Shown: positions 19,951-41,073 of the stretch, one piece after another
How positions within the stretch are numbered: position 1 is the stretch's first letter
Layout: each line of letters starts with the position of its first letter
Source of the DNA: Escherichia coli
GTDB lineage: Bacteria > Pseudomonadota > Gammaproteobacteria > Enterobacterales > Enterobacteriaceae
Strand: one strand, 5' to 3'
Length of the DNA stretch: 64,000 nt
NCBI RefSeq assembly: GCF_002854065.1
Contig: NZ_CP024147.1
The notes under the pieces: generated by a model
Databases searched by the model: none
What the model saw: the letters and a program-made list of their open reading frames with translations, nothing else
Told to the model about the DNA's origin: nothing
Program-made: the position numbers and the translations under genes

Positions 19951-20814
19951 GTGTGGGCGCTAACTGCGGATGCTGATTTTCTGGCGCAGCGGGGGCAAGG
20001 ACAGGTTGAACAGGTCTTTGCCAGAGCGGTAAATATCGCAATCCCGGCTCGCCAGCAGTTGCTGACGCTGCTTTGTGAAGAGTACGACAATGCGCCAAAC
20101 AGTTGTCGGTTGGCACTCACTCACTTTGATGGTCTGTTTCGGCATGGTGATAAGGTTCAGTTTGACGATCAAGGCATTACGGTTGGTCAACATCTTCATA
20201 TAGAGATGAGTCGTTGTCGGCGTTGGCTGTCCCCAACCTTGCAAATGACCGCTGTGAATTTTCACCTTATCGCCTGGCAACAGTGGCACGACATTATTCA
20301 TCAGCACCTGGGGGAAAATGAAACCCTGTTTAATTATCGCGGCGATAATCCGTTTTATCAGGCGTTAAATAAAGAATTACATATTAAACGACGGGCAGTT
20401 ATTCAGACAGTAAACGATAAGCAAAATATCGCCTCAGCGGTCGCCAGTATGATGGGGTTAGGGATTGGCCTTACGCCATCAGCCGACGATTATTTAACAG
20501 GTCTGGCGCTTATTTTATTTATTCCCGGGCATCCGGCGGAAAAATACAAAGAGGAATTTTATCTCGGTCTGCAACGCGGCAGAAATAATACCACATTATT
20601 AAGTGCTATAACGCTGGAAGCCGCATTACAACAACGTTGCCGGGAAAATATTCATCGTTTTATTCACAACATTATTTATGACATCCCTAGGAACGCAACT
20701 CAGGCAATAGAAAAAATTAAACATATTGGCTCCAGTTCCGGCTGCGACATGCTGTATGGCATGGCCGATGGTTGTGCGCTGAGCCAAACCTACGGAGGGA
20801 ATTATGTCAGTTAA
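19951..20814 (+). CDS. yahE: DUF2877 protein YahE (YlbF paralogue)
   Basis: 287-aa ORF; position and length match yahE; overlaps yahF start by 11 nt. Confidence 0.75.
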   Translation: MWALTADADFLAQRGQGQVEQVFARAVNIAIPARQQLLTLLCEEYDNAPNSCRLALTHFDGLFRHGDKVQFDDQGITVGQHLHIEMSRCRRWLSPTLQMTAVNFHLIAWQQWHDIIHQHLGENETLFNYRGDNPFYQALNKELHIKRRAVIQTVNDKQNIASAVASMMGLGIGLTPSADDYLTGLALILFIPGHPAEKYKEEFYLGLQRGRNNTTLLSAITLEAALQQRCRENIHRFIHNIIYDIPRNATQAIEKIKHIGSSSGCDMLYGMADGCALSQTYGGNYVS

Positions 20815-22351
20815 AATAGTCATTAAACCGAATACCTATTTTGATTCTGTCTCACTGATGTCTATCTCCACGCGTGCAAATAAACTCGACGGCGTCGAGC
20901 AGGCATTTGTGGCGATGGCGACCGAAATGAATAAAGGCGTGCTGAAGAATTTAGGACTGCTGACGCCGGAGCTGGAGCAGGCGAAAAACGGCGACCTGAT
21001 GATTGTCATCAATGGTAAATCGGGTGCGGACAATGAGCAGTTGCTGGCGGAGATTGAAGAACTGTTCAACACCAAAGCGCAAAGCGGCTCGCACGAGGCG
21101 CGTTACGCCACTATTGCCAGCGCCAAAAAGCATATCCCGGAAAGTAACCTGGCGGTGATTTCGGTCAACGGTCTGTTTGCCGCTCGCGAAGCGCGTCAGG
21201 CGCTGCAAAACGATCTCAACGTGATGCTGTTTTCCGATAACGTCTCAGTTGAAGATGAACTGGCGCTCAAGCAACTGGCTCACGAAAAAGGGCTGCTGAT
21301 GATGGGGCCAGACTGTGGCACGGCGATTATCAACGGCGCGGCGCTCTGTTTTGGTAACGCCGTGCGTCGCGGCAACATCGGTATTGTTGGCGCATCCGGC
21401 ACCGGCAGCCAGGAGCTGAGCGTCCGCATTCATGAATTTGGTGGCGGCGTTTCACAACTGATTGGCACCGGCGGGCGCGACCTGAGCGAGAAAATCGGCG
21501 GCCTGATGATGCTCGACGCCATCGGGATGCTGGAAAACGATCCGCAAACTGAAATTATCGCGCTGATTTCAAAACCTCCCGCGCCTGCGGTGGCCCGTAA
21601 AGTGCTGGAACGCGCCCGCGCCTGCCGCAAGCCGGTGGTGGTCTGCTTCCTCGGTCGTGGCGAAACGCCGGTTGACGAGCAGGGGCTACAGTTTGCTCGC
21701 GGCAGCAAAGAAGCGGCGCTAAAAGCGGTGATGCTCTCCGGCGTGAAACAGGAAAATCTCGACCTGCATACGCTTAACCAGCCGTTGATTGCGGATGTGC
21801 GTGCGCGTCTGCAACCCCAGCAGAAATACATTCGTGGCCTGTTCTGCGGCGGCACGCTGTGCGACGAAACCATGTTCGCGGTGATGGAAAAACACGGCGA
21901 TGTCTACAGCAACATTCAGCCCGATCCGGAATTCCGCCTGAAAGATATCAACCGCAGCATCAAACACACCTTCCTCGACTTTGGCGATGACGACTTCACC
22001 AACGGCAAGCCGCATCCAATGATTGACCCCACCAACCGCATCAGTCGCTTGATCGAAGAGGCGCGCGATCCAGAAGTGGCGGTGATCGTGATGGATTTTG
22101 TGCTCGGATTTGGATCGCATGAAGATCCGGTCGGCTCCACCATCGAGGCGATCAAAGAAGCGAAAGCGATCGCCGCTGCCGAAGGACGCGAGTTGATCAT
22201 TCTCGCCTATGTGCTGGGTACCGATCTTGATACGCCATCGTTAGAACAACAAAGCCAGATGCTGCTTGATGCCGGAGTGATTCTGGCGAGCAGCAGCACC
22301 AATACCGGATTGCTGGCGCGTGAATTTATCTGCAAAGGGGAGGAAGCCTGA
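20804..22351 (+). CDS. yahF: FdrA-like acyl-CoA synthetase / succinyl-CoA-synthetase-alpha-like protein YahF
   Basis: 515 aa; CoA-binding-like glycine-rich segments. Confidence 0.8.
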   Translation: MSVKIVIKPNTYFDSVSLMSISTRANKLDGVEQAFVAMATEMNKGVLKNLGLLTPELEQAKNGDLMIVINGKSGADNEQLLAEIEELFNTKAQSGSHEARYATIASAKKHIPESNLAVISVNGLFAAREARQALQNDLNVMLFSDNVSVEDELALKQLAHEKGLLMMGPDCGTAIINGAALCFGNAVRRGNIGIVGASGTGSQELSVRIHEFGGGVSQLIGTGGRDLSEKIGGLMMLDAIGMLENDPQTEIIALISKPPAPAVARKVLERARACRKPVVVCFLGRGETPVDEQGLQFARGSKEAALKAVMLSGVKQENLDLHTLNQPLIADVRARLQPQQKYIRGLFCGGTLCDETMFAVMEKHGDVYSNIQPDPEFRLKDINRSIKHTFLDFGDDDFTNGKPHPMIDPTNRISRLIEEARDPEVAVIVMDFVLGFGSHEDPVGSTIEAIKEAKAIAAAEGRELIILAYVLGTDLDTPSLEQQSQMLLDAGVILASSSTNTGLLAREFICKGEEA

Positions 22352-23757
22352 TGAGCCAGTCACTGTTTAGCCAACCATTGAACGTTATTAACGTCGGCAT
22401 CGCCATGTTTAGCGATGACCTGAAAAAGCAGCATGTAGAAGTGACTCAACTCGACTGGACGCCGCCGGGGCAGGGCAATATGCAGGTGGTGCAGGCGCTG
22501 GATAACATTGCCGATTCGCCGCTGGCAGACAAAATCGCCGCCGCTAACCAGCAGGCGCTGGAGCGCATTATCCAGTCGCATCCGGTGCTGATTGGTTTTG
22601 ATCAGGCGATTAACGTGGTGCCGGGCATGACGCCGAAAACCATTCTTCACGCCGGGCCGCCGATCACCTGGGAAAAAATGTGCGGCGCGATGAAAGGCGC
22701 GGTCACCGGAGCGCTGGTGTTCGAAGGACTGGCGAAAGATCTCGACGAGGCGGCTGAACTGGCGGCTTCCGGGGAGATCACCTTCTCGCCGTGTCACGAG
22801 CACGACTGCGTGGGATCGATGGCGGGTGTTACCTCGGCCTCGATGTTTATGCACATCGTAAAAAACAAAACCTACGGCAACATCGCTTATACCAACATGA
22901 GCGAGCAGATGGCGAAGATTTTGCGTATGGGCGCTAACGACCAGAGCGTGATTGACCGCCTGAACTGGATGCGTGATGTGCAGGGACCAATACTGCGCGA
23001 CGCGATGAAAATTATCGGCGAAATCGATCTGCGCTTAATGCTGGCGCAGGCGCTGCATATGGGCGATGAGTGCCATAACCGCAATAACGCCGGGACGACG
23101 CTGCTGATTCAGGCGCTGACGCCGGGGATCATTCAGGCAGGTTATTCCGTCGAGCAACAGCGCGAAGTGTTTGAGTTTGTCGCCAGCAGCGACTACTTCT
23201 CCGGCCCGACGTGGATGGCGATGTGTAAAGCGGCGATGGATGCGGCGCACGGCATCGAATACAGCACCGTGGTCACCACCATGGCGCGTAACGGCGTCGA
23301 GTTCGGCCTGCGGGTCAGCGGATTACCGGGGCAATGGTTTACCGGTCCGGCGCAGCAGGTCATCGGCCCGATGTTTGCCGGTTATAAGCCGGAAGATTCG
23401 GGGCTGGATATCGGCGACAGTGCCATCACCGAAACCTACGGTATTGGCGGATTTGCCATGGCGACCGCGCCTGCAATCGTCGCGCTGGTGGGTGGCACGG
23501 TGGAAGAGGCTATCGATTTCTCCCGTCAGATGCGCGAAATCACCCTTGGCGAAAACCCCAACGTCACCATTCCGCTGCTTGGTTTTATGGGCGTGCCGTT
23601 GGCAATCGACATCACCCGCGTGGGTAGCAGCGGCATTCTGCCGGTGATCAACACCGCCATCGCCCATAAAGATGCGGGCGTCGGCATGATTGGCGCGGGC
23701 ATTGTGCATCCACCTTTTGCCTGCTTCGAGAAAGCCATTCTTGGTTACGGCGTCTGA
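22351..23757 (+). CDS. yahG: DUF1116 protein YahG (YlbE paralogue)
   Basis: 468-aa ORF, start overlaps yahF stop (ATGA). Confidence 0.75.
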   Translation: MSQSLFSQPLNVINVGIAMFSDDLKKQHVEVTQLDWTPPGQGNMQVVQALDNIADSPLADKIAAANQQALERIIQSHPVLIGFDQAINVVPGMTPKTILHAGPPITWEKMCGAMKGAVTGALVFEGLAKDLDEAAELAASGEITFSPCHEHDCVGSMAGVTSASMFMHIVKNKTYGNIAYTNMSEQMAKILRMGANDQSVIDRLNWMRDVQGPILRDAMKIIGEIDLRLMLAQALHMGDECHNRNNAGTTLLIQALTPGIIQAGYSVEQQREVFEFVASSDYFSGPTWMAMCKAAMDAAHGIEYSTVVTTMARNGVEFGLRVSGLPGQWFTGPAQQVIGPMFAGYKPEDSGLDIGDSAITETYGIGGFAMATAPAIVALVGGTVEEAIDFSRQMREITLGENPNVTIPLLGFMGVPLAIDITRVGSSGILPVINTAIAHKDAGVGMIGAGIVHPPFACFEKAILGYGV

Positions 23758-23899: not shown

Positions 23900-24850
23900 A
23901 TGAAAGAACTTGTGGTCGTTGCCATTGGTGGCAACAGCATTATCAAGGATAACGCCAGCCAGTCGATTGAGCATCAGGCGGAGGCGGTGAAAGCCGTGGC
24001 CGATACGGTGCTGGAAATGCTGGCTTCCGATTACGACATTGTGCTGACCCACGGCAACGGGCCGCAGGTCGGGCTGGATTTACGCCGTGCGGAGATTGCC
24101 CACGAGCGCGAAGGGCTGCCTTTAACGCCGCTGGCGAACTGTGTGGCGGATACGCAAGGCGGCATCGGCTATCTGATCCAACAGGCGCTGAACAACCGAC
24201 TGGCGCGTCACGGTGAGAAAAAAGCCGTCACCGTGGTGACTCAGGTGGAAGTGGATAAAAACGATCCAGGGTTTGCTCATCCCACCAAGCCCATCGGCGC
24301 ATTCTTCAGTGAAAGTCAGCGTGACGAATTACAAAAGGCGAACCCTGACTGGCGTTTTGTTGAAGATGCCGGACGGGGCTATCGCCGCGTGGTCGCCTCG
24401 CCGGAACCGAAACGTATTGTCGAAGCACCGGCCATTAAGGCGCTGATCCAGCAAGGCTTTGTGGTGATTGGCGCGGGCGGTGGTGGTATTCCGGTGGTGC
24501 GCACTGAAGCGGGAGATTACCAAAGCGTGGACGCGGTTATCGACAAAGATCTCTCTACCGCGCTGTTGGCCCGTGAAATTCACGCCGACATTCTGGTGAT
24601 CACCACTGGCGTCGAAAAAGTGTGTATTCATTTTGGCAAACCGCAGCAGCAGGCGCTGGATCGCGTAGATATTGCCACCATGACCCGCTATATGCAGGAA
24701 GGGCATTTCCCGCCTGGCAGCATGTTGCCAAAAATCATCGCGAGCCTGACGTTCCTGGAACAGGGCGGCAAAGAAGTGATTATCACCACGCCGGAATGCC
24801 TGCCCGCGGCGCTGCGCGGTGAAACGGGCACCCATATTATTAAAACGTGA
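23900..24850 (+). CDS. yahI: carbamate kinase-like protein YahI
   Basis: 316 aa; amino-acid kinase family motifs (VVAIGGN, THGNGPQVG). Confidence 0.85.
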   Translation: MKELVVVAIGGNSIIKDNASQSIEHQAEAVKAVADTVLEMLASDYDIVLTHGNGPQVGLDLRRAEIAHEREGLPLTPLANCVADTQGGIGYLIQQALNNRLARHGEKKAVTVVTQVEVDKNDPGFAHPTKPIGAFFSESQRDELQKANPDWRFVEDAGRGYRRVVASPEPKRIVEAPAIKALIQQGFVVIGAGGGGIPVVRTEAGDYQSVDAVIDKDLSTALLAREIHADILVITTGVEKVCIHFGKPQQQALDRVDIATMTRYMQEGHFPPGSMLPKIIASLTFLEQGGKEVIITTPECLPAALRGETGTHIIKT

Positions 24851-24859
24851 GGACGTAAG

Positions 24860-26242
24860 ATGAAAGAAAGCAATAGCCGCCGTGAGTTTTTGAGCCAGAG
24901 CGGTAAGATGGTCACCGCCGCCGCGTTGTTTGGTACGTCTGTGCCGCTCGCCCATGCGGCGGTAGCTGGCAACCTAAACTGCGACGCGAATAACACCATG
25001 AAAATCACTGACCCGCACTACTATCTCGACAACGTGCTGCTGGAAACCGGTTTTGACTACGAAAACGGTGTGGCGGTGTAGACCCGCACGGCGCGCCAGA
25101 CCGTGGAGATTCAGAACGGTAAAATTGTTGCGCTGCGCGAGAACAAGCAGCATCCGGACGCCACGCTGCCGCACTATGACGCTGGCGGTAAGCTGATGCT
25201 GCCCACCACCCGCGACATGCATATTCATCTCGACAAAACCTTTTACGGCGGGCCGTGGCGCTCACTCAATCGTCCGGCTGGCACCACCATTCAGGACATG
25301 ATTAAGCTCGAGCAGAAAATGCTGCCGGAACTGCAACCGTATACTCAGGAACGGGCGGAAAAACTGATCGATTTATTGCAGTCGAAAGGCACTACCATTG
25401 CCCGCAGCCACTGCAATATCGAACCGGTTTCCGGCCTGAAAAATCTGCAAAATTTGCAGGCGGTGCTGGCGCGACGTCAGGCGGGCTTCGAGTGTGAAAT
25501 TGTCGCCTTCCCGCAGCACGGTTTGCTGCTGTCGAAATCGGAACCCTTAATGCGCGAAGCAATGCAGGCAGGGGCGCATTACGTTGGCGGGCTGGACCCA
25601 ACCAGTGTTGATGGCGCGATGGAAAAATCCCTCGACACCATGTTCCAGATTGCGCTGGACTACGACAAAGGCGTCGATATTCACCTGCACGAAACCACTC
25701 CGGCAGGCGTGGCGGCCATCAATTATATGGTTGAAACAGTGGAGAAAACGCCGCAACTGAAGGGCAAACTGACCATCAGCCATGCCTTTGCGCTGGCAAC
25801 ACTCAACGAGCAACAGGTAGATGAACTGGCTAACCGGATGGTGGTGCAGCAAATTTCTATCGCCTCGACGGTGCCGATTGGTACGCTGCATATGCCGCTC
25901 AAACAGTTACACGACAAAGGCGTAAAAGTGATGACTGGCACTGACAGCGTTATCGACCACTGGTCGCCTTATGGTCTGGGCGACATGCTGGAAAAAGCCA
26001 ATCTCTACGCGCAGCTCTATATTCGTCCTAACGAACAGAACCTCTCCCGTTCGCTGTTTCTAGCCACTGGCGATGTATTGCCGCTGAATGAAAAAGGCGA
26101 GCGTGTATGGCCAAAAGCGCAGGATGACGCCAGCTTTGTGCTGGTGGACGCCTCCTGTTCCGCCGAGGCGGTGGCGCGTATCTCGCCGAGAACCGCAACG
26201 TTCCATAAAGGGCAACTGGTGTGGGGGAGTGTGGCAGGTTGA
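24860..26242 (+). pseudogene. yahJ: yahJ, Tat-signal amidohydrolase/deaminase, interrupted by in-frame TAG at 25079-25081
   Basis: ORF 24860..25081 encodes a twin-arginine signal peptide (SRREFLSQSG...AHA); same frame continues after the TAG into the amidohydrolase domain ORF 25103..26242 (HIHLDKT metal-binding motif). Confidence 0.8.
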
Positions 26243-33533: not shown

Positions 33534-33544
33534 TGGATTTGCCC

Positions 33545-34450
33545 CTATATTTCCAGACATCTGTTATCACTTAACCCATTACAAGCCCGCTGCCGCAGAT
33601 ATTCCCGTGGCGAGCGATAACCCAGCGCACTATGCGGATGCCATTCGTTATAATGCTCGAACGCCTCTGCAAGGTTCTTTGCTGCCGTTAACCCGTCTGG
33701 TTTGGGCATGATACTGATGTAGTCACGCTTTATCGTTTTCACGAAGCTCTCTGCTATTCCGTTACTCTCCGGACTCCGCACCGCCGTGTTCTTCGGTTCA
33801 AGTCCCAACATCCGGGCGAACTGGCGTGTTTCATTAGCCCGGTAGCATGAACCATTATCCGTCAGCCACTCCACTGGAGACGACGGAAGATCGTTGCCGA
33901 AGCGGCGTTCCACCGCTCCCAGCATGACGTCCTGTACTGTTTCACTGTTGAAGCCGCCGGTAGTGACCGCCCAGTGCAGTGCCTCACGATCACAGCAGTC
34001 CAGCGCGAACGTGACACGCAGTCTCTCTCCGTTATCACAGCAGAACTCGAACCCGTCAGAGCACCATCGCTGATTGCTTTCTTTCACGGCCACTCTGCCT
34101 GTATGTGCCCGTTTCGATGGCGGTACAGCAGGTTTTCGCTCAAGCAACAGCGCATTCTGGCGCATGATCCGGTAAACACGTTTGGCATTGATCGCAGGCA
34201 TACCATCAAGTTCTGCCTGTCTGCGAAGCAGCGCCCATACCCGACGATAACCATACGTGGGCAGCTCTCCGATAACATGGTGTATACGGAGAAGCACATC
34301 CGTATCATCAGTGTGACGACTGCGGCGGCCATCCATCCAGTCATCGGTTCGTCTGAGAATGACGTGCAACTGCGCACGCGACACCCGGAGACAACGGCTG
34401 ACTAAGCTTACTCCCCATCCCCGGGCAATAAGGGCGCGTGCGCTATCCAC
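33545..34450 (-). CDS. insD: IS2 transposase OrfB (InsD), DDE integrase domain
   Basis: 301-aa ORF inside the IS2 element with IS3-family transposase catalytic domain. Confidence 0.9.
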
Positions 34451-34773
34451 TTTTTTGCCCGTCCATATTCAACGGCTTCTTTGAGGAGTTCATTTTCCAT
34501 CGTTTTCTTGCCGAGCAGGCGCTGGAGTTCTTTAATCTGCTTCATGGCGGCAGCAAGTTCAGAGGCAGGAACAACCTGTTCTCCGGCGGCGACAGCAGTA
34601 AGACTTCCTTCCTGGTATTGCTTACGCCAGAGAAATAACTGGCTGGCTGCTACACCATGTTGCCGGGCAACGAGGGAGACCGTCATCCCCGGTTCAAAGC
34701 TCTGCTGAACAATTGCGATCTTTTCCTGTGTGGTACGCCGTCTGCGTTTCTCCGGCCCTAAGACATCAATCAT
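34408..34773 (-). CDS. insC: IS2 OrfA (InsC), HTH transposase N-terminal protein
   Basis: ORF track 34408..34818; start at [18 protein letters not shown] (121 aa); overlaps insD in -1 frame as expected for IS3-family frameshift. Confidence 0.9.
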
Positions 34774-34864
34774 CTGTTCTCCAATGACTAGTCTAAAAAC
34801 TAGTATTAAGACTATCACTTATTTAAGTGATATTGGTTGTCTGGAGATTCAGGGGGCCAGTCTA

Positions 34865-34869: not shown

Positions 34870-35580
34870 GACTTTTCCCTAAAGGGAAAGAGTGTATGCA
34901 TGTGGAAAAATGGCTTCGCGAAATGTCGTCTATTCCGGAGACAGACGCGCCCATTAAGCAGGCGCTTGCGCATGGATTATTATTACACTTAAAAAATATC
35001 TACCCTGTTTTTCCTGAATCACTGGTGATGTTATTGCTCTCTGTTCTGGACGTAAAAACATACAGAGATGATGCACGATTAAATGAATGGATATCTAATA
35101 GAGTGCAGGAATTAGGTGACAGATATTATCCTGTAAATAAGCACGTTAAAATTCGCTACACTCTTTAGTTCAGAAAGGGTTCCACCTGCAAGTTGTTATT
35201 CCACCAGAGAGTGAATCGCAATGCAGGTAATCATTTCATCTGTATATCTGTATGCCAACTGGCATTCCATCTCTTTTTTCGCCGATATTTTGTTGTGATC
35301 GGCGACACTTCGCTTAAAAAAGCACCAGTAGTGGTTTCGCAGCCATGCGGTGTATAAAAAATGATCTCATGCAGATGTTTTGTGAATGTGTGGGTTGACA
35401 TTCATATGAAAAAAATCATAATTCCATCATGTTTGTGTGGGGTCTTTTCTGTATCTTACGCATCGCACTCAAGCCTGACAGAAAATATGCTGTAAGGCTC
35501 ATATCAAAAACCGCCATTAGCTCATCAGGAAGAGCAGACGACAACCAGGATTGTTGTATGGTACGGGGTTCGAGGCCTCG

Positions 35581-35826
35581 ATGGCGGTCCAACTTTTCAA
35601 AACTCTTCTGAATCAGATCCCCTTATTATCATCCCTGCAAAGTGGAACATTGCCATTGTTTGGCTATTCAGGACGGGTCAGACCAATGAAAAAAGCCCAC
35701 ACAGGGGAGAGTGGGCTGAAATGGGAAGCTAAAGACTCAAGTAAACTTATCGGAAATAAGGACCACGCATTACGGGGGCTATCATCGCCGATGGTCGGGA
35801 TTCGGCAAATCAGGTTGATTACGTAG
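35581..35826 (+). CDS. yahM: small uncharacterised protein YahM
   Basis: ORF track 35551..35826; start guessed at MAVQLFK (81 aa); identification from position and length recall only. Confidence 0.5.
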   Translation: MAVQLFKTLLNQIPLLSSLQSGTLPLFGYSGRVRPMKKAHTGESGLKWEAKDSSKLIGNKDHALRGLSSPMVGIRQIRLIT

Positions 35827-38858: not shown

Positions 38859-39749
38859 ATGTCTCTACACTCTCCAGGTAAAGCGTTTCGCGCTGCACTA
38901 AGCAAAGAAACCCCGTTGCAAATTGTTGGCACCATCAACGCTAACCATGCGCTGCTGGCGCAGCGTGCCGGATATCAGGCAATTTATCTCTCCGGCGGTG
39001 GCGTGGCGGCAGGGTCGCTGGGGCTGCCCGATCTCGGTATTTCTACTCTTGATGACGTGTTGACAGATATTCGCCGTATCACCGACGTTTGTTCGCTGCC
39101 GCTGCTGGTGGATGCGGATATCGGTTTTGGTTCTTCGGCCTTTAACGTGGCGCGCACCGTGAAATCGATGATTAAAGCTGGTGCGGCAGGATTGCATATT
39201 GAAGATCAGGTTGGTGCGAAACGCTGCGGTCATCGTCCGAATAAAGCGATCGTCTCGAAAGAGGAGATGGTGGATCGGATCCGTGCGGCGGTGGATGCGA
39301 AAACCGATCCTGATTTTGTGATCATGGCGCGCACCGATGCGCTGGCGGTAGAGGGGCTGGATGCGGCGATCGAGCGTGCGCAGGCCTATGTTGAAGCGGG
39401 TGCCGAGATGTTGTTCCCGGAGGCGATTACCGAACTCGCCATGTACCGCCAGTTTGCCGATGCGGTGCAGGTGCCAATCCTCGCCAACATTACCGAATTT
39501 GGCGCCACGCCGCTGTTTACCACCGACGAATTACGCAGCGCTCATGTCGCGATGGCGCTGTACCCGCTTTCAGCGTTTCGCGCCATGAACCGCGCCGCCG
39601 AACATGTCTACAACGTCCTGCGCCAGGAAGGCACGCAGAAAAGCGTCATCGACACCATGCAGACCCGCAACGAGCTGTACGAAAGCATCAACTACTACCA
39701 GTACGAAGAGAAGCTCGACGACCTGTTTGCCCGTAGCCAGGCGAAATAA
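38859..39749 (+). CDS. prpB: 2-methylisocitrate lyase PrpB
   Basis: 296 aa; PEP mutase/isocitrate lyase family motifs. Confidence 0.95.
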
Positions 39750-39769
39750 AAAACGCCCGTTGGTTGTAT

Positions 39770-39860
39770 TCGACAACCGATGCCTGATGCGCCGCTGACG
39801 CGACTTATCAGGCCTACGGGGTGAACTGTAGGTCGGATAAGACGCATGGCGTCGCATCCG
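39770..39860. repeat. REP elements between prpB and prpC
   Basis: gcctgatgcgccgctgacgcgacttatcaggcctac and tgtaggtcggataagacgcatggcgtcgcatccgac REP-type palindromes. Confidence 0.8.
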
Positions 39861-39904
39861 ACAACAATCTCGACCCTACAAATGATAACAATGACGAGGA
39901 CAAT

Positions 39905-41073
39905 ATGAGCGACACAACGATCCTGCAAAACAGTACCCATGTCATTAAACCGAAAAAATCTGTGGCGCTTTCTGGCGTTCCGGCGGGCAATACGGCGCTC
40001 TGCACCGTGGGTAAAAGTGGCAATGACTTGCATTACCGTGGCTACGATATTCTTGATCTGGCGGAACATTGCGAATTTGAAGAAGTGGCGCATCTGCTGA
40101 TCCACGGCAAACTGCCGACCCGTGACGAACTCGCCGCCTACAAAACGAAACTGAAAGCCCTGCGCGGTTTACCGGCTAACGTGCGTACCGTGCTGGAAGC
40201 CTTACCGGCGGGTCACACCCGATGGATGTTATGCGCACCGGCGTTTCCGCGCTCGGCTGCACGCTGCCAGAAAAAGAGGGGCATACCGTCTCTGGCGCGC
40301 GGGATATTGCCGACAAACTGCTGGCGTCACTTAGCTCGATTCTTCTCTACTGGTATCACTACAGCCATAACGGCGAACGCATCCAGCCGGAAACCGATGA
40401 CGACTCCATCGGCGGTCACTTCCTGCATCTGCTGCACGGCGAAAAGCCGTCGCAAAGCTGGGAAAAGGCGATGCATATTTCGCTGGTGCTGTACGCCGAA
40501 CACGAGTTTAACGCTTCCACCTTTACCAGTCGGGTGATTGCGGGCACCGGCTCTGATATGTATTCCGCGATTATTGGCGCGATTGGCGCACTGCGCGGGC
40601 CGAAACACGGCGGGGCGAATGAAGTGTCGCTGGAGATCCAGCAACGCTACGAAACGCCAGACGAAGCCGAAGCAGATATCCGCAAGCGCGTGGAAAACAA
40701 AGAAGTGGTCATTGGTTTTGGGCATCCGGTTTATACCATCGCCGACCCGCGCCACCAGGTGATTAAACGTGTGGCGAAGCAGCTCTCGCAGGAAGGCGGC
40801 TCGCTGAAGATGTACAACATCGCCGATCGCCTGGAAACGGTGATGTGGGAGAGCAAAAAGATGTTCCCCAATCTCGACTGGTTCTCCGCTGTTTCCTACA
40901 ACATGATGGGCGTTCCCACCGAGATGTTCACACCACTGTTTGTTATCGCTCGCGTCACCGGCTGGGCGGCGCACATTATCGAACAACGTCAGGACAACAA
41001 AATTATCCGTCCTTCCGCCAATTATGTTGGACCGGAAGACCGCCAGTTTGTCGCGCTGGATAAGCGCCAGTAA
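39905..41073 (+). pseudogene. prpC: prpC (2-methylcitrate synthase) with -1 frameshift near 40205-40215
   Basis: Frame from ATG 39905 (MSDTTILQNSTHVIKPKK…) leaves the citrate-synthase sequence after …VLEALPA and stops at 40537; remainder ([13 protein letters not shown]… to KRQ) is in the -1 frame (ORF 40222..41073). Confidence 0.8.

Follow-up and report, generated by a model that had tools for sequence, protein, structure and literature searches.

The closest described counterpart of the locus analysed here is YahJ of Escherichia coli K-12 (b0324), a predicted Tat-exported, metal-dependent amidohydrolase or deaminase, the gene for which occupies the same chromosomal site, following yahI. YahJ was included among the predicted Tat substrates in one study (PMC3027627), and its signal peptide was tabulated in another, where it was likewise regarded as a predicted Tat substrate (PMC7549933). 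Relatives with solved structures are the AtzC-like N-isopropylammelide isopropylaminohydrolase 6nbo (E = 1.8e-43 versus YahJ) and the cytosine deaminases 4r7w (E = 2.4e-19) and 1k6w (CodA). Judged from sequence, these proteins share the amidohydrolase-superfamily fold with YahJ; their HxH motifs align with that of YahJ, and an N-terminal beta-sandwich segment precedes this motif in each of them. In contrast to YahJ, however, they are cytoplasmic and lack a signal peptide, whereas YahJ has about 60 extra N-terminal residues that comprise the signal peptide and an extension.

With these systems as a reference, we analysed the yahJ locus in a 64,000-nucleotide stretch of E. coli DNA, hereafter referred to as the window. 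The yahJ pseudogene spans positions 24860..26242 on the plus strand, which corresponds to 460 codons when codon 74 is read as Gln. Besides the stop, the window protein is 99% identical to K-12 YahJ, from which it differs by N38T, D42E, N86D and Q97L, and with which it shares the HxH motif and an identical 33-residue Tat signal peptide. At the nucleotide level the two alleles are 96.2% identical, and codon 74 is CAG in K-12 as opposed to TAG in the window. We consider it very probable that this TAG represents a genuine, vertically inherited nonsense mutation (25079 C>T, Q74*) and, with it, a null allele of yahJ in one rare E. coli lineage. The null status of the allele is strongly argued for by the DNA sequence.

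The amber codon and its position in YahJ

Codon 74 of yahJ is a TAG at positions 25079-25081, in frame with the ATG at 24860. The base calls are T at 25079, A at 25080 and G at 25081, and the local reading is GGT GTG GCG GTG TAG ACC CGC ACG. The open reading frame from ATG 24860 comprises 73 codons (MKESNSRREF...YENGVAV*) and, past the stop, the yahJ frame reads on as TRTARQTVEIQNGK and remains open until the TGA at 26240-26242. The sequence-only reading had placed the TAG at this site, directly after YENGVAV and with the frame open beyond it, and both its coordinates and the flanking peptides proved to be exact. It had also given Gln as the residue at this codon in K-12 and had proposed an alignment with the yahJ alleles of other strains. 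Indeed, a base-by-base comparison with K-12 MG1655 showed that codon 74 is CAG in this strain, and the wider comparison returned CAG in K-12 and XJ34 and TAG in five other sequences. XJ34 carries the nearest intact yahJ allele, which is 99.7% identical to that of the window; the two differ at 4 of 1383 nucleotides, namely at 24870, 24926, 24937 and 25079, the last being the C/T difference in codon 74. Since both K-12 and XJ34 have CAG, the lesion is one C>T transition at 25079 (Q74*), which creates a premature amber stop at codon 74 (CAG>TAG; 25079..25081, plus strand). Thus, a premature in-frame stop has taken the place of a sense codon that the closest intact orthologues retain, as is characteristic of a nonsense pseudogene. 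The TAG site does not lie in a Dcm (CCWGG) context in the window sequence.

The native start of yahJ is preceded by a Shine-Dalgarno sequence GAGGA (24849..24853, plus strand) with an anti-Shine-Dalgarno pairing of -6.2 kcal/mol, a value near the 5th percentile of the window background, and this sequence overlaps the yahI stop codon (TGA 24848-24850). Residues 1-33, MKESNSRREFLSQSGKMVTAAALFGTSVPLAHA (24860..24958, plus strand), are identical to the YahJ signal peptide listed in Table 2 of PMC7549933. By eye, a twin-arginine motif SRREFLS of the S/T-R-R-x-F-L-K type was recognised at residues 6-12 (24875-24895, plus strand), and the translation further contains the hydrophobic stretch MVTAAALFGTSVPL and the AxA-type sequence AHA-A at residues 31-34, with a predicted signal-peptide cleavage between residues 33 and 34. 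Neither the full-length protein nor the 73-residue fragment matched a curated Tat model (Pfam TAT_signal, TIGR01409 type) at E<=0.1, but such very short models often miss genuine signals.

For the domain searches we used the restored protein in which codon 74 is Gln. The NCBIfam model PRK06846 scored 713.5 bits (cutoff 447) over residues 49-459, a match that takes in profile positions 2-410 of 412, and Pfam Amidohydro_3 matched residues 162-438 with 69 bits (cutoff 29.7). Pfam Amidohydro_1 matched residues 113-378 with 30 bits (cutoff 25). The HxH metal-binding motif of the YahJ/PRK06846 subfamily is present as H121-I122-H123 (CAT ATT CAT; 25220..25228, plus strand) at the end of barrel strand 1, where it aligns with HTHLD of 6nbo and HIHLD of 4r7w. 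The stop is located 40 residues beyond the Tat cleavage site, 47 residues before the HxH motif and some 25 residues into the PRK06846 match. In placing the N-terminal segment relative to PDB entries, we used only weak, mutually consistent amidohydrolase alignments; designed 'Pizza' beta-propeller proteins, which were the top PDB hits of this segment, were rejected as chance repeat matches. Residues 11-397 of 4r7w align to YahJ 76-451, residues 7-67 of 3sfw align to YahJ 69-130, and position 13 of PRK05985 is opposite YahJ residue 75, such that YahJ residues ~69-76 lie opposite positions 7-11 of the solved cytoplasmic relatives. By these alignments, the stop is situated within the conserved enzyme region, just inside the predicted shared fold and not in a linker.

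This position refines the earlier suggestion that the amber codon separates the Tat signal peptide from the amidohydrolase domain. The suggestion holds in substance, but the stop does not mark a domain boundary as it lies 25 residues within PRK06846. That the signal peptide and the catalytic domain can no longer be joined in one polypeptide without readthrough was also correctly anticipated, with the Amidohydro_1 region and the HxH histidines 121 and 123 all following the stop. Because the amber codon 74 interrupts the region covered by PRK06846, the frame of this YahJ/PRK06846 homologue is not continuous, and the window locus is a pseudogene of the subfamily and not a functional member.

With regard to the gene products, ribosomes that initiate at ATG 24860 encounter a stop after 73 codons. 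The only abundant product would be a 73-residue fragment composed of the 33-residue Tat signal peptide and 40 residues of the N-terminal subdomain, which would be devoid of catalytic residues and would probably be degraded. The remaining 386 codons, which specify the entire metal-binding barrel and what is left of the N-terminal subdomain, would stay essentially untranslated, and the lineage would consequently lack periplasmic YahJ activity.

Occurrence of the amber allele

When positions 24860-26242 were used as a megablast query for 5,426 complete E. coli genomes, 5,042 gave a match to yahJ, annotated as 'amidohydrolase family protein'. The TAG was read as DNA in six sequences: the window, the genomes of strains 100416 and CUWW06, and the metagenome contigs L007 (ENA), L008 (JGI) and L010 (ENA). 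Strain 100416 was obtained from human stool in the Gambia and CUWW06 from wastewater in Thailand, and the yahJ genes of both are 100% identical to that of the window over 1383 nucleotides, including the TAG. The public PGAP annotation labels them as 'amidohydrolase family protein, pseudo, internal stop' (ACU5SM_RS19225 in 100416 and ACNHKQ_RS05755 in CUWW06). While the gene itself is identical in the window and these two sister genomes, the flanking regions differ in insertion sequences and in a few single-nucleotide polymorphisms (SNPs) and indels.

An exact-sequence look-up in public contigs (NCBI, ENA, JGI and Logan) recorded the exact 73-residue fragment on 103 contigs, a figure that may count a few wild-type fragments at contig ends, as is the case for four of the five contigs with the related fragment P0015. 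The 379-residue remainder was recorded on 88 public contigs. The 23 longest fragment-bearing contigs were read and found to have common neighbour genes, the 379-residue open reading frame among them. Of the 4,351 complete E. coli genomes with a match, only 2 have the exact TAG-containing 63-mer. Since this SNP is present in only 2 of ~4,350 complete genomes, the T at 25079 can serve as a clean lineage marker. The same records carry a warning for annotation: pipelines without a pseudogene model split yahJ into a 73-residue 'YahJ' and a 379-residue 'amidohydrolase', and the approximately 100 pairs of this kind in public databases should not be taken as two genes.

Conceivably, the TAG could be an error of sequencing or assembly in a strain that truly has CAG, and the private indels of the window (the 1-bp deletion in prpC at ~40212 and the 12-bp deletion in yahG) could hint at an imperfect assembly. 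However, the same base is found in five other independently produced sequences that were read as DNA, the 73-residue product is on record for approximately 100 contigs, and the change at 25079 is a substitution, unlike the indel-type errors seen elsewhere in the window. In view of the identical T in these five further sequences we rejected a sequencing error, to which we assign practically no probability.

The window is distinct from both sister genomes. It lacks both IS1 elements of CUWW06 as well as the IS1 of 100416, and its 12-bp yahG deletion, its 1-bp prpC deletion and an IS2-type insertion in yahL are absent from the two sisters. At the same time, the window differs from the sister genomes by only 12 SNPs per 39.8 kb and 20 SNPs per 40.6 kb. 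Because the insertion sequence content and the private indels differ, the window is a third strain, distinct from 100416 and CUWW06. With the TAG variant found in independent isolates, Q74* is inherited and fixed within one rare circulating E. coli lineage.

We also considered a second, independent origin of the stop, suggested by fragment P0015, which likewise ends at V73 in another N-terminal background. This was rejected: among the P0015 contigs, L010 carries the same TAG allele and the other four represent wild-type yahJ cut off by the contig end, such that these five contigs give no evidence for recurrence of a stop at codon 74. In L010 (487-1869; ERZ18534393 NODE_2686), which has a coverage of ~90x according to the assembler, as given in the contig name, 12 differences are clustered within the first 118 nucleotides of yahJ and only one is found thereafter. 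Apart from this 5′ end and the one SNP of L010, yahJ does not differ among the TAG sequences read. L010 thus has a TAG allele whose 5′ end was swapped by recombination, which shows that enough time has passed for the circulating null allele to undergo recombination.

Restart, readthrough and recoding

Downstream of the TAG, the list of open reading frames contains a yahJ frame of 379 codons that starts at the GTG of codon 82 (25103..26242, plus strand) and is called as a separate 'amidohydrolase'. This GTG is the first start-type codon in frame after the stop. It is only 21 nucleotides away, which is within the range over which terminating ribosomes can restart, as known from nonsense mutants of lacI and T4 rIIB. 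Furthermore, the downstream frame is fully intact with a dN/dS of 0.014 versus K-12, and an in-frame ATG at 25196 (codon 113) is accompanied by the moderate Shine-Dalgarno-like sequence GGCGGTAAG (-6.1 kcal/mol). Restart at GTG 25103 or ATG 25196 could therefore be envisaged to yield a cytoplasmic amidohydrolase with a retained or changed function. However, Shine-Dalgarno pairing at GTG 25103 amounts to -1.7 kcal/mol, which is no better than the median of the window background (-2.2 kcal/mol; the native ATG has -6.2 kcal/mol), and the GTG sits within a predicted local hairpin, being paired in the local fold. A product starting at V82 would lack the residues that align to positions 1 to ~20 of the cytoplasmic relatives, and one starting at M113 would be without the N-terminal half of its beta-sandwich subdomain. 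That the downstream frame is intact carries no information in this respect: with a strain divergence of only ~3-5 x 10^-4 per site, 1.2 kb should by now have gained fewer than one further change. In addition, the operon has been damaged further in the lineage, by the IS1 between yahE and fdrA in CUWW06 and by the four-codon deletion in yahG of the window.

We therefore regard a functional restart product as improbable. GTG 25103 is without Shine-Dalgarno support, and an open reading frame finder reports it simply because no other start-type codon comes earlier after the stop; the frame at 25103..26242 is probably translated to no useful extent, while some internal initiation at ATG 25196 is conceivable. 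The sequence-only reading had stated that any product restarted at GTG 25103 would be cytoplasmic, with which we agree, but such a product would also miss the mature residues 34-81. Still more doubtful is the idea of a relocation, in which a signal-less amidohydrolase would have been kept in the cytoplasm beside the carbamoyltransferase-like YahE/F/G and the carbamate kinase YahI, and the pathway would have been rewired so that substrates are processed in the cytoplasm instead of the periplasm.

A full-length, exported and useful YahJ could, in principle, also be produced by readthrough of the UAG, either via a suppressor tRNA or via leaky termination. The original residue was Gln and supE inserts Gln at UAG, by which the wild-type protein would be restored; moreover, there are reports of amber suppressors in natural coliforms. 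To the contrary, the two tRNA-Gln(CUG) genes of CUWW06 have retained the normal CTG anticodon, and no suppressor tRNA is present in the window. An exact supE-type tRNA was found in 155 genomes and, among the matches listed (60), all were K-12 laboratory derivatives. On the basis of the tRNA-Gln cluster fetched from the sister genome CUWW06, in which both CUG tRNAs are wild type, we rejected supE suppression in this strain; the checks for suppressors covered this genome, where supE is absent, and the window, where none was found. E. coli generally shows very little basal readthrough of UAG, and a low level of natural readthrough may occur at this site as well. Readthrough to a useful amount of exported protein is, in our judgement, highly improbable.

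Programmed recoding would require a different distribution of the stop. Because the stop is not conserved across orthologues, occurring in 2 of 4,351 complete genomes, programmed recoding was excluded. Selenocysteine insertion is excluded by the codon, which is UAG and not UGA, and no pyrrolysine machinery is known from E. coli. Rescue of the gene product is thus unlikely, and the inherited null allele remains the preferred explanation for the interrupted yahJ frame.

Gene loss and the yah neighbourhood

Compared with K-12, the window yahJ has a dS of 0.16 and a dN of 0.004, giving a dN/dS of 0.023 (0.014 downstream of the stop), and the neighbouring yahI has a dN/dS of 0.027 at a dS of 0.21. 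Since the dN/dS of yahJ versus K-12 is 0.023, the gene was under strong purifying selection until recently, with no later decay. The mutation is recent relative to the age of the allele because no further damage has accumulated in yahJ, yet it predates the split of the sampled strains. The yahJ allele of the window is unusually divergent: an allele with a match of at least 99% to that of the window is present in only 4 of ~5,040 complete genomes, the next best match being 96.3%, which suggests that the yahI-yahJ segment is an old or imported haplotype.

The Q74* allele is in line with a general pattern of repeated loss of yahJ, an accessory gene, in E. coli. Other truncated versions of yahJ (P0007, P0012 and P0013) look like frameshifts that are independent of Q74*, P0002 diverges abruptly beyond approximately residue 98 of YahJ, strain E423 carries an ISApl1 insertion in yahJ, and no yahJ match was obtained in 384 of the 5,426 complete E. 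coli genomes. Repeated loss of this kind is what would normally be expected of an accessory gene that is dispensable. It could nevertheless be argued that a genuine null allele became fixed by adaptive loss in the niche of the lineage instead of by drift, as the allele has spread across continents (the Gambia and Thailand) and recurs in further ENA and JGI samples, and yahJ has been inactivated independently several times, by frameshifts, by an insertion sequence or by absence. Hitch-hiking in a successful clone would account for the spread equally well, and a yahJ deletion in one ExPEC strain caused a slight drop in fitness in mice, the sole recorded phenotype, with a competitive index of 0.70 (PMC7549933), which in that setting is a cost and not a benefit. 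Adaptive loss is, in our view, unlikely. We conclude that Q74* is an ordinary lineage-specific nonsense pseudogene that has already been annotated. Beyond such bookkeeping it has little consequence, the lineage being predicted to lack, in all probability, the periplasmic YahJ amidohydrolase. Nonetheless, the TAG allele represents a natural knockout that can be compared with the intact near-twin XJ34 in the search for the YahJ substrate.

YahJ is encoded by the last gene of the same-strand run yahE-fdrA(yahF)-yahG-yahI-yahJ. The upstream genes yahE (19951-20814), fdrA/yahF (20804-22351), yahG (22351-23757) and yahI (23900-24850), all on the plus strand, are open in the window. At the 3′ end of yahG, a 12-bp in-frame deletion at 23743/23744 (GCTGGTGCGAAC missing) reduces YahG from 472 to 468 amino acids; this four-codon deletion is private to the window among the seven sequences compared, which are K-12, XJ34, 100416, CUWW06, two metagenome contigs and the window itself. 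CUWW06 has two extra IS1 elements, one downstream of betT and the other between yahE and fdrA. Damage to the operon outside yahJ has thus begun independently in different strains of the lineage.

The products of the upstream genes contain Pfam domains of the AllF_N/CoA-ligase, AllG and carbamate-kinase type AA_kinase families, and the AllFGH oxamic transcarbamylase and its carbamate kinase belong to the same families (PMC11326118, PMC9843812). By their domains, the upstream yah genes are probably paralogues of those for AllF/AllG/AllH-type carbamoyltransferase subunits and a carbamate kinase; the papers on allFGH and ybcF contain no mention of these yah paralogues (PMC11326118, PMC9843812). 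We infer that the yah cluster may degrade some carbamoyl or ureido compound with YahJ as an exported hydrolase, in which case this step would be lost in the lineage. A scan for plus-strand terminator-like sites after yahJ found none, and one promoter-like site precedes the next gene. In K-12 yahK follows directly after yahJ, whereas the yahJ-yahK interval of the window (26541 to ~31700) contains a gene for an ASCH-domain protein and then four genes for an ABC transporter, which encode an 'autoinducer 2'-type substrate-binding protein, an ATPase and two permeases.

Several further observations were made in the window. Within yahL, a 1,331-bp insertion at 33534-34864 has the terminal inverted repeats TGGATTTGCCCCTATATTTCCAGACA ... 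TCTGGAGATTCAGGGGGCCAGTCTA and is flanked by a 5-bp target duplication GCTGA; from these ends and its length, we take this element to be of the IS2 type. It is missing in both sister genomes, and 100416 instead has an IS1 that replaces yahL. Just 5′ of yahM, ARAGORN reported an 81-nucleotide tRNA-Ser(GGA) at 35511-35591 (plus strand) with a good T-arm GGTTCGAGGCCTC. No Rfam tRNA reached the gathering score in this interval and the PGAP annotation of the sister genomes has no tRNA there; the call is probably spurious or reflects a tRNA-like remnant.

In prpC, encoding 2-methylcitrate synthase, a 1-bp deletion at about 40212 (CCGGCGG-GTCAC versus CCGGCGGCGTCAC in both sister genomes) is private to the window. 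The gene is consequently frameshifted into overlapping open reading frames at 39821-40537 and 40222-41073, and the deletion is either a true mutation or an assembly error. By contrast, codB is intact in the window, whereas codB of CUWW06 (39183-40442, equivalent to 45377-46636 of the window) has an internal stop due to a C>T change at the window-equivalent position 45689. This codB stop and the IS1 copies of CUWW06, set against the intact codB of the window, show members of the lineage acquiring separate inactivating lesions in this region. Lastly, the prpE-codB interval contains seven tandem naRNA4/CssrE elements, a REP-type array, at 44582-45221 (plus strand) with a spacing of ~94 nucleotides, and all seven copies exceed the Rfam gathering score.
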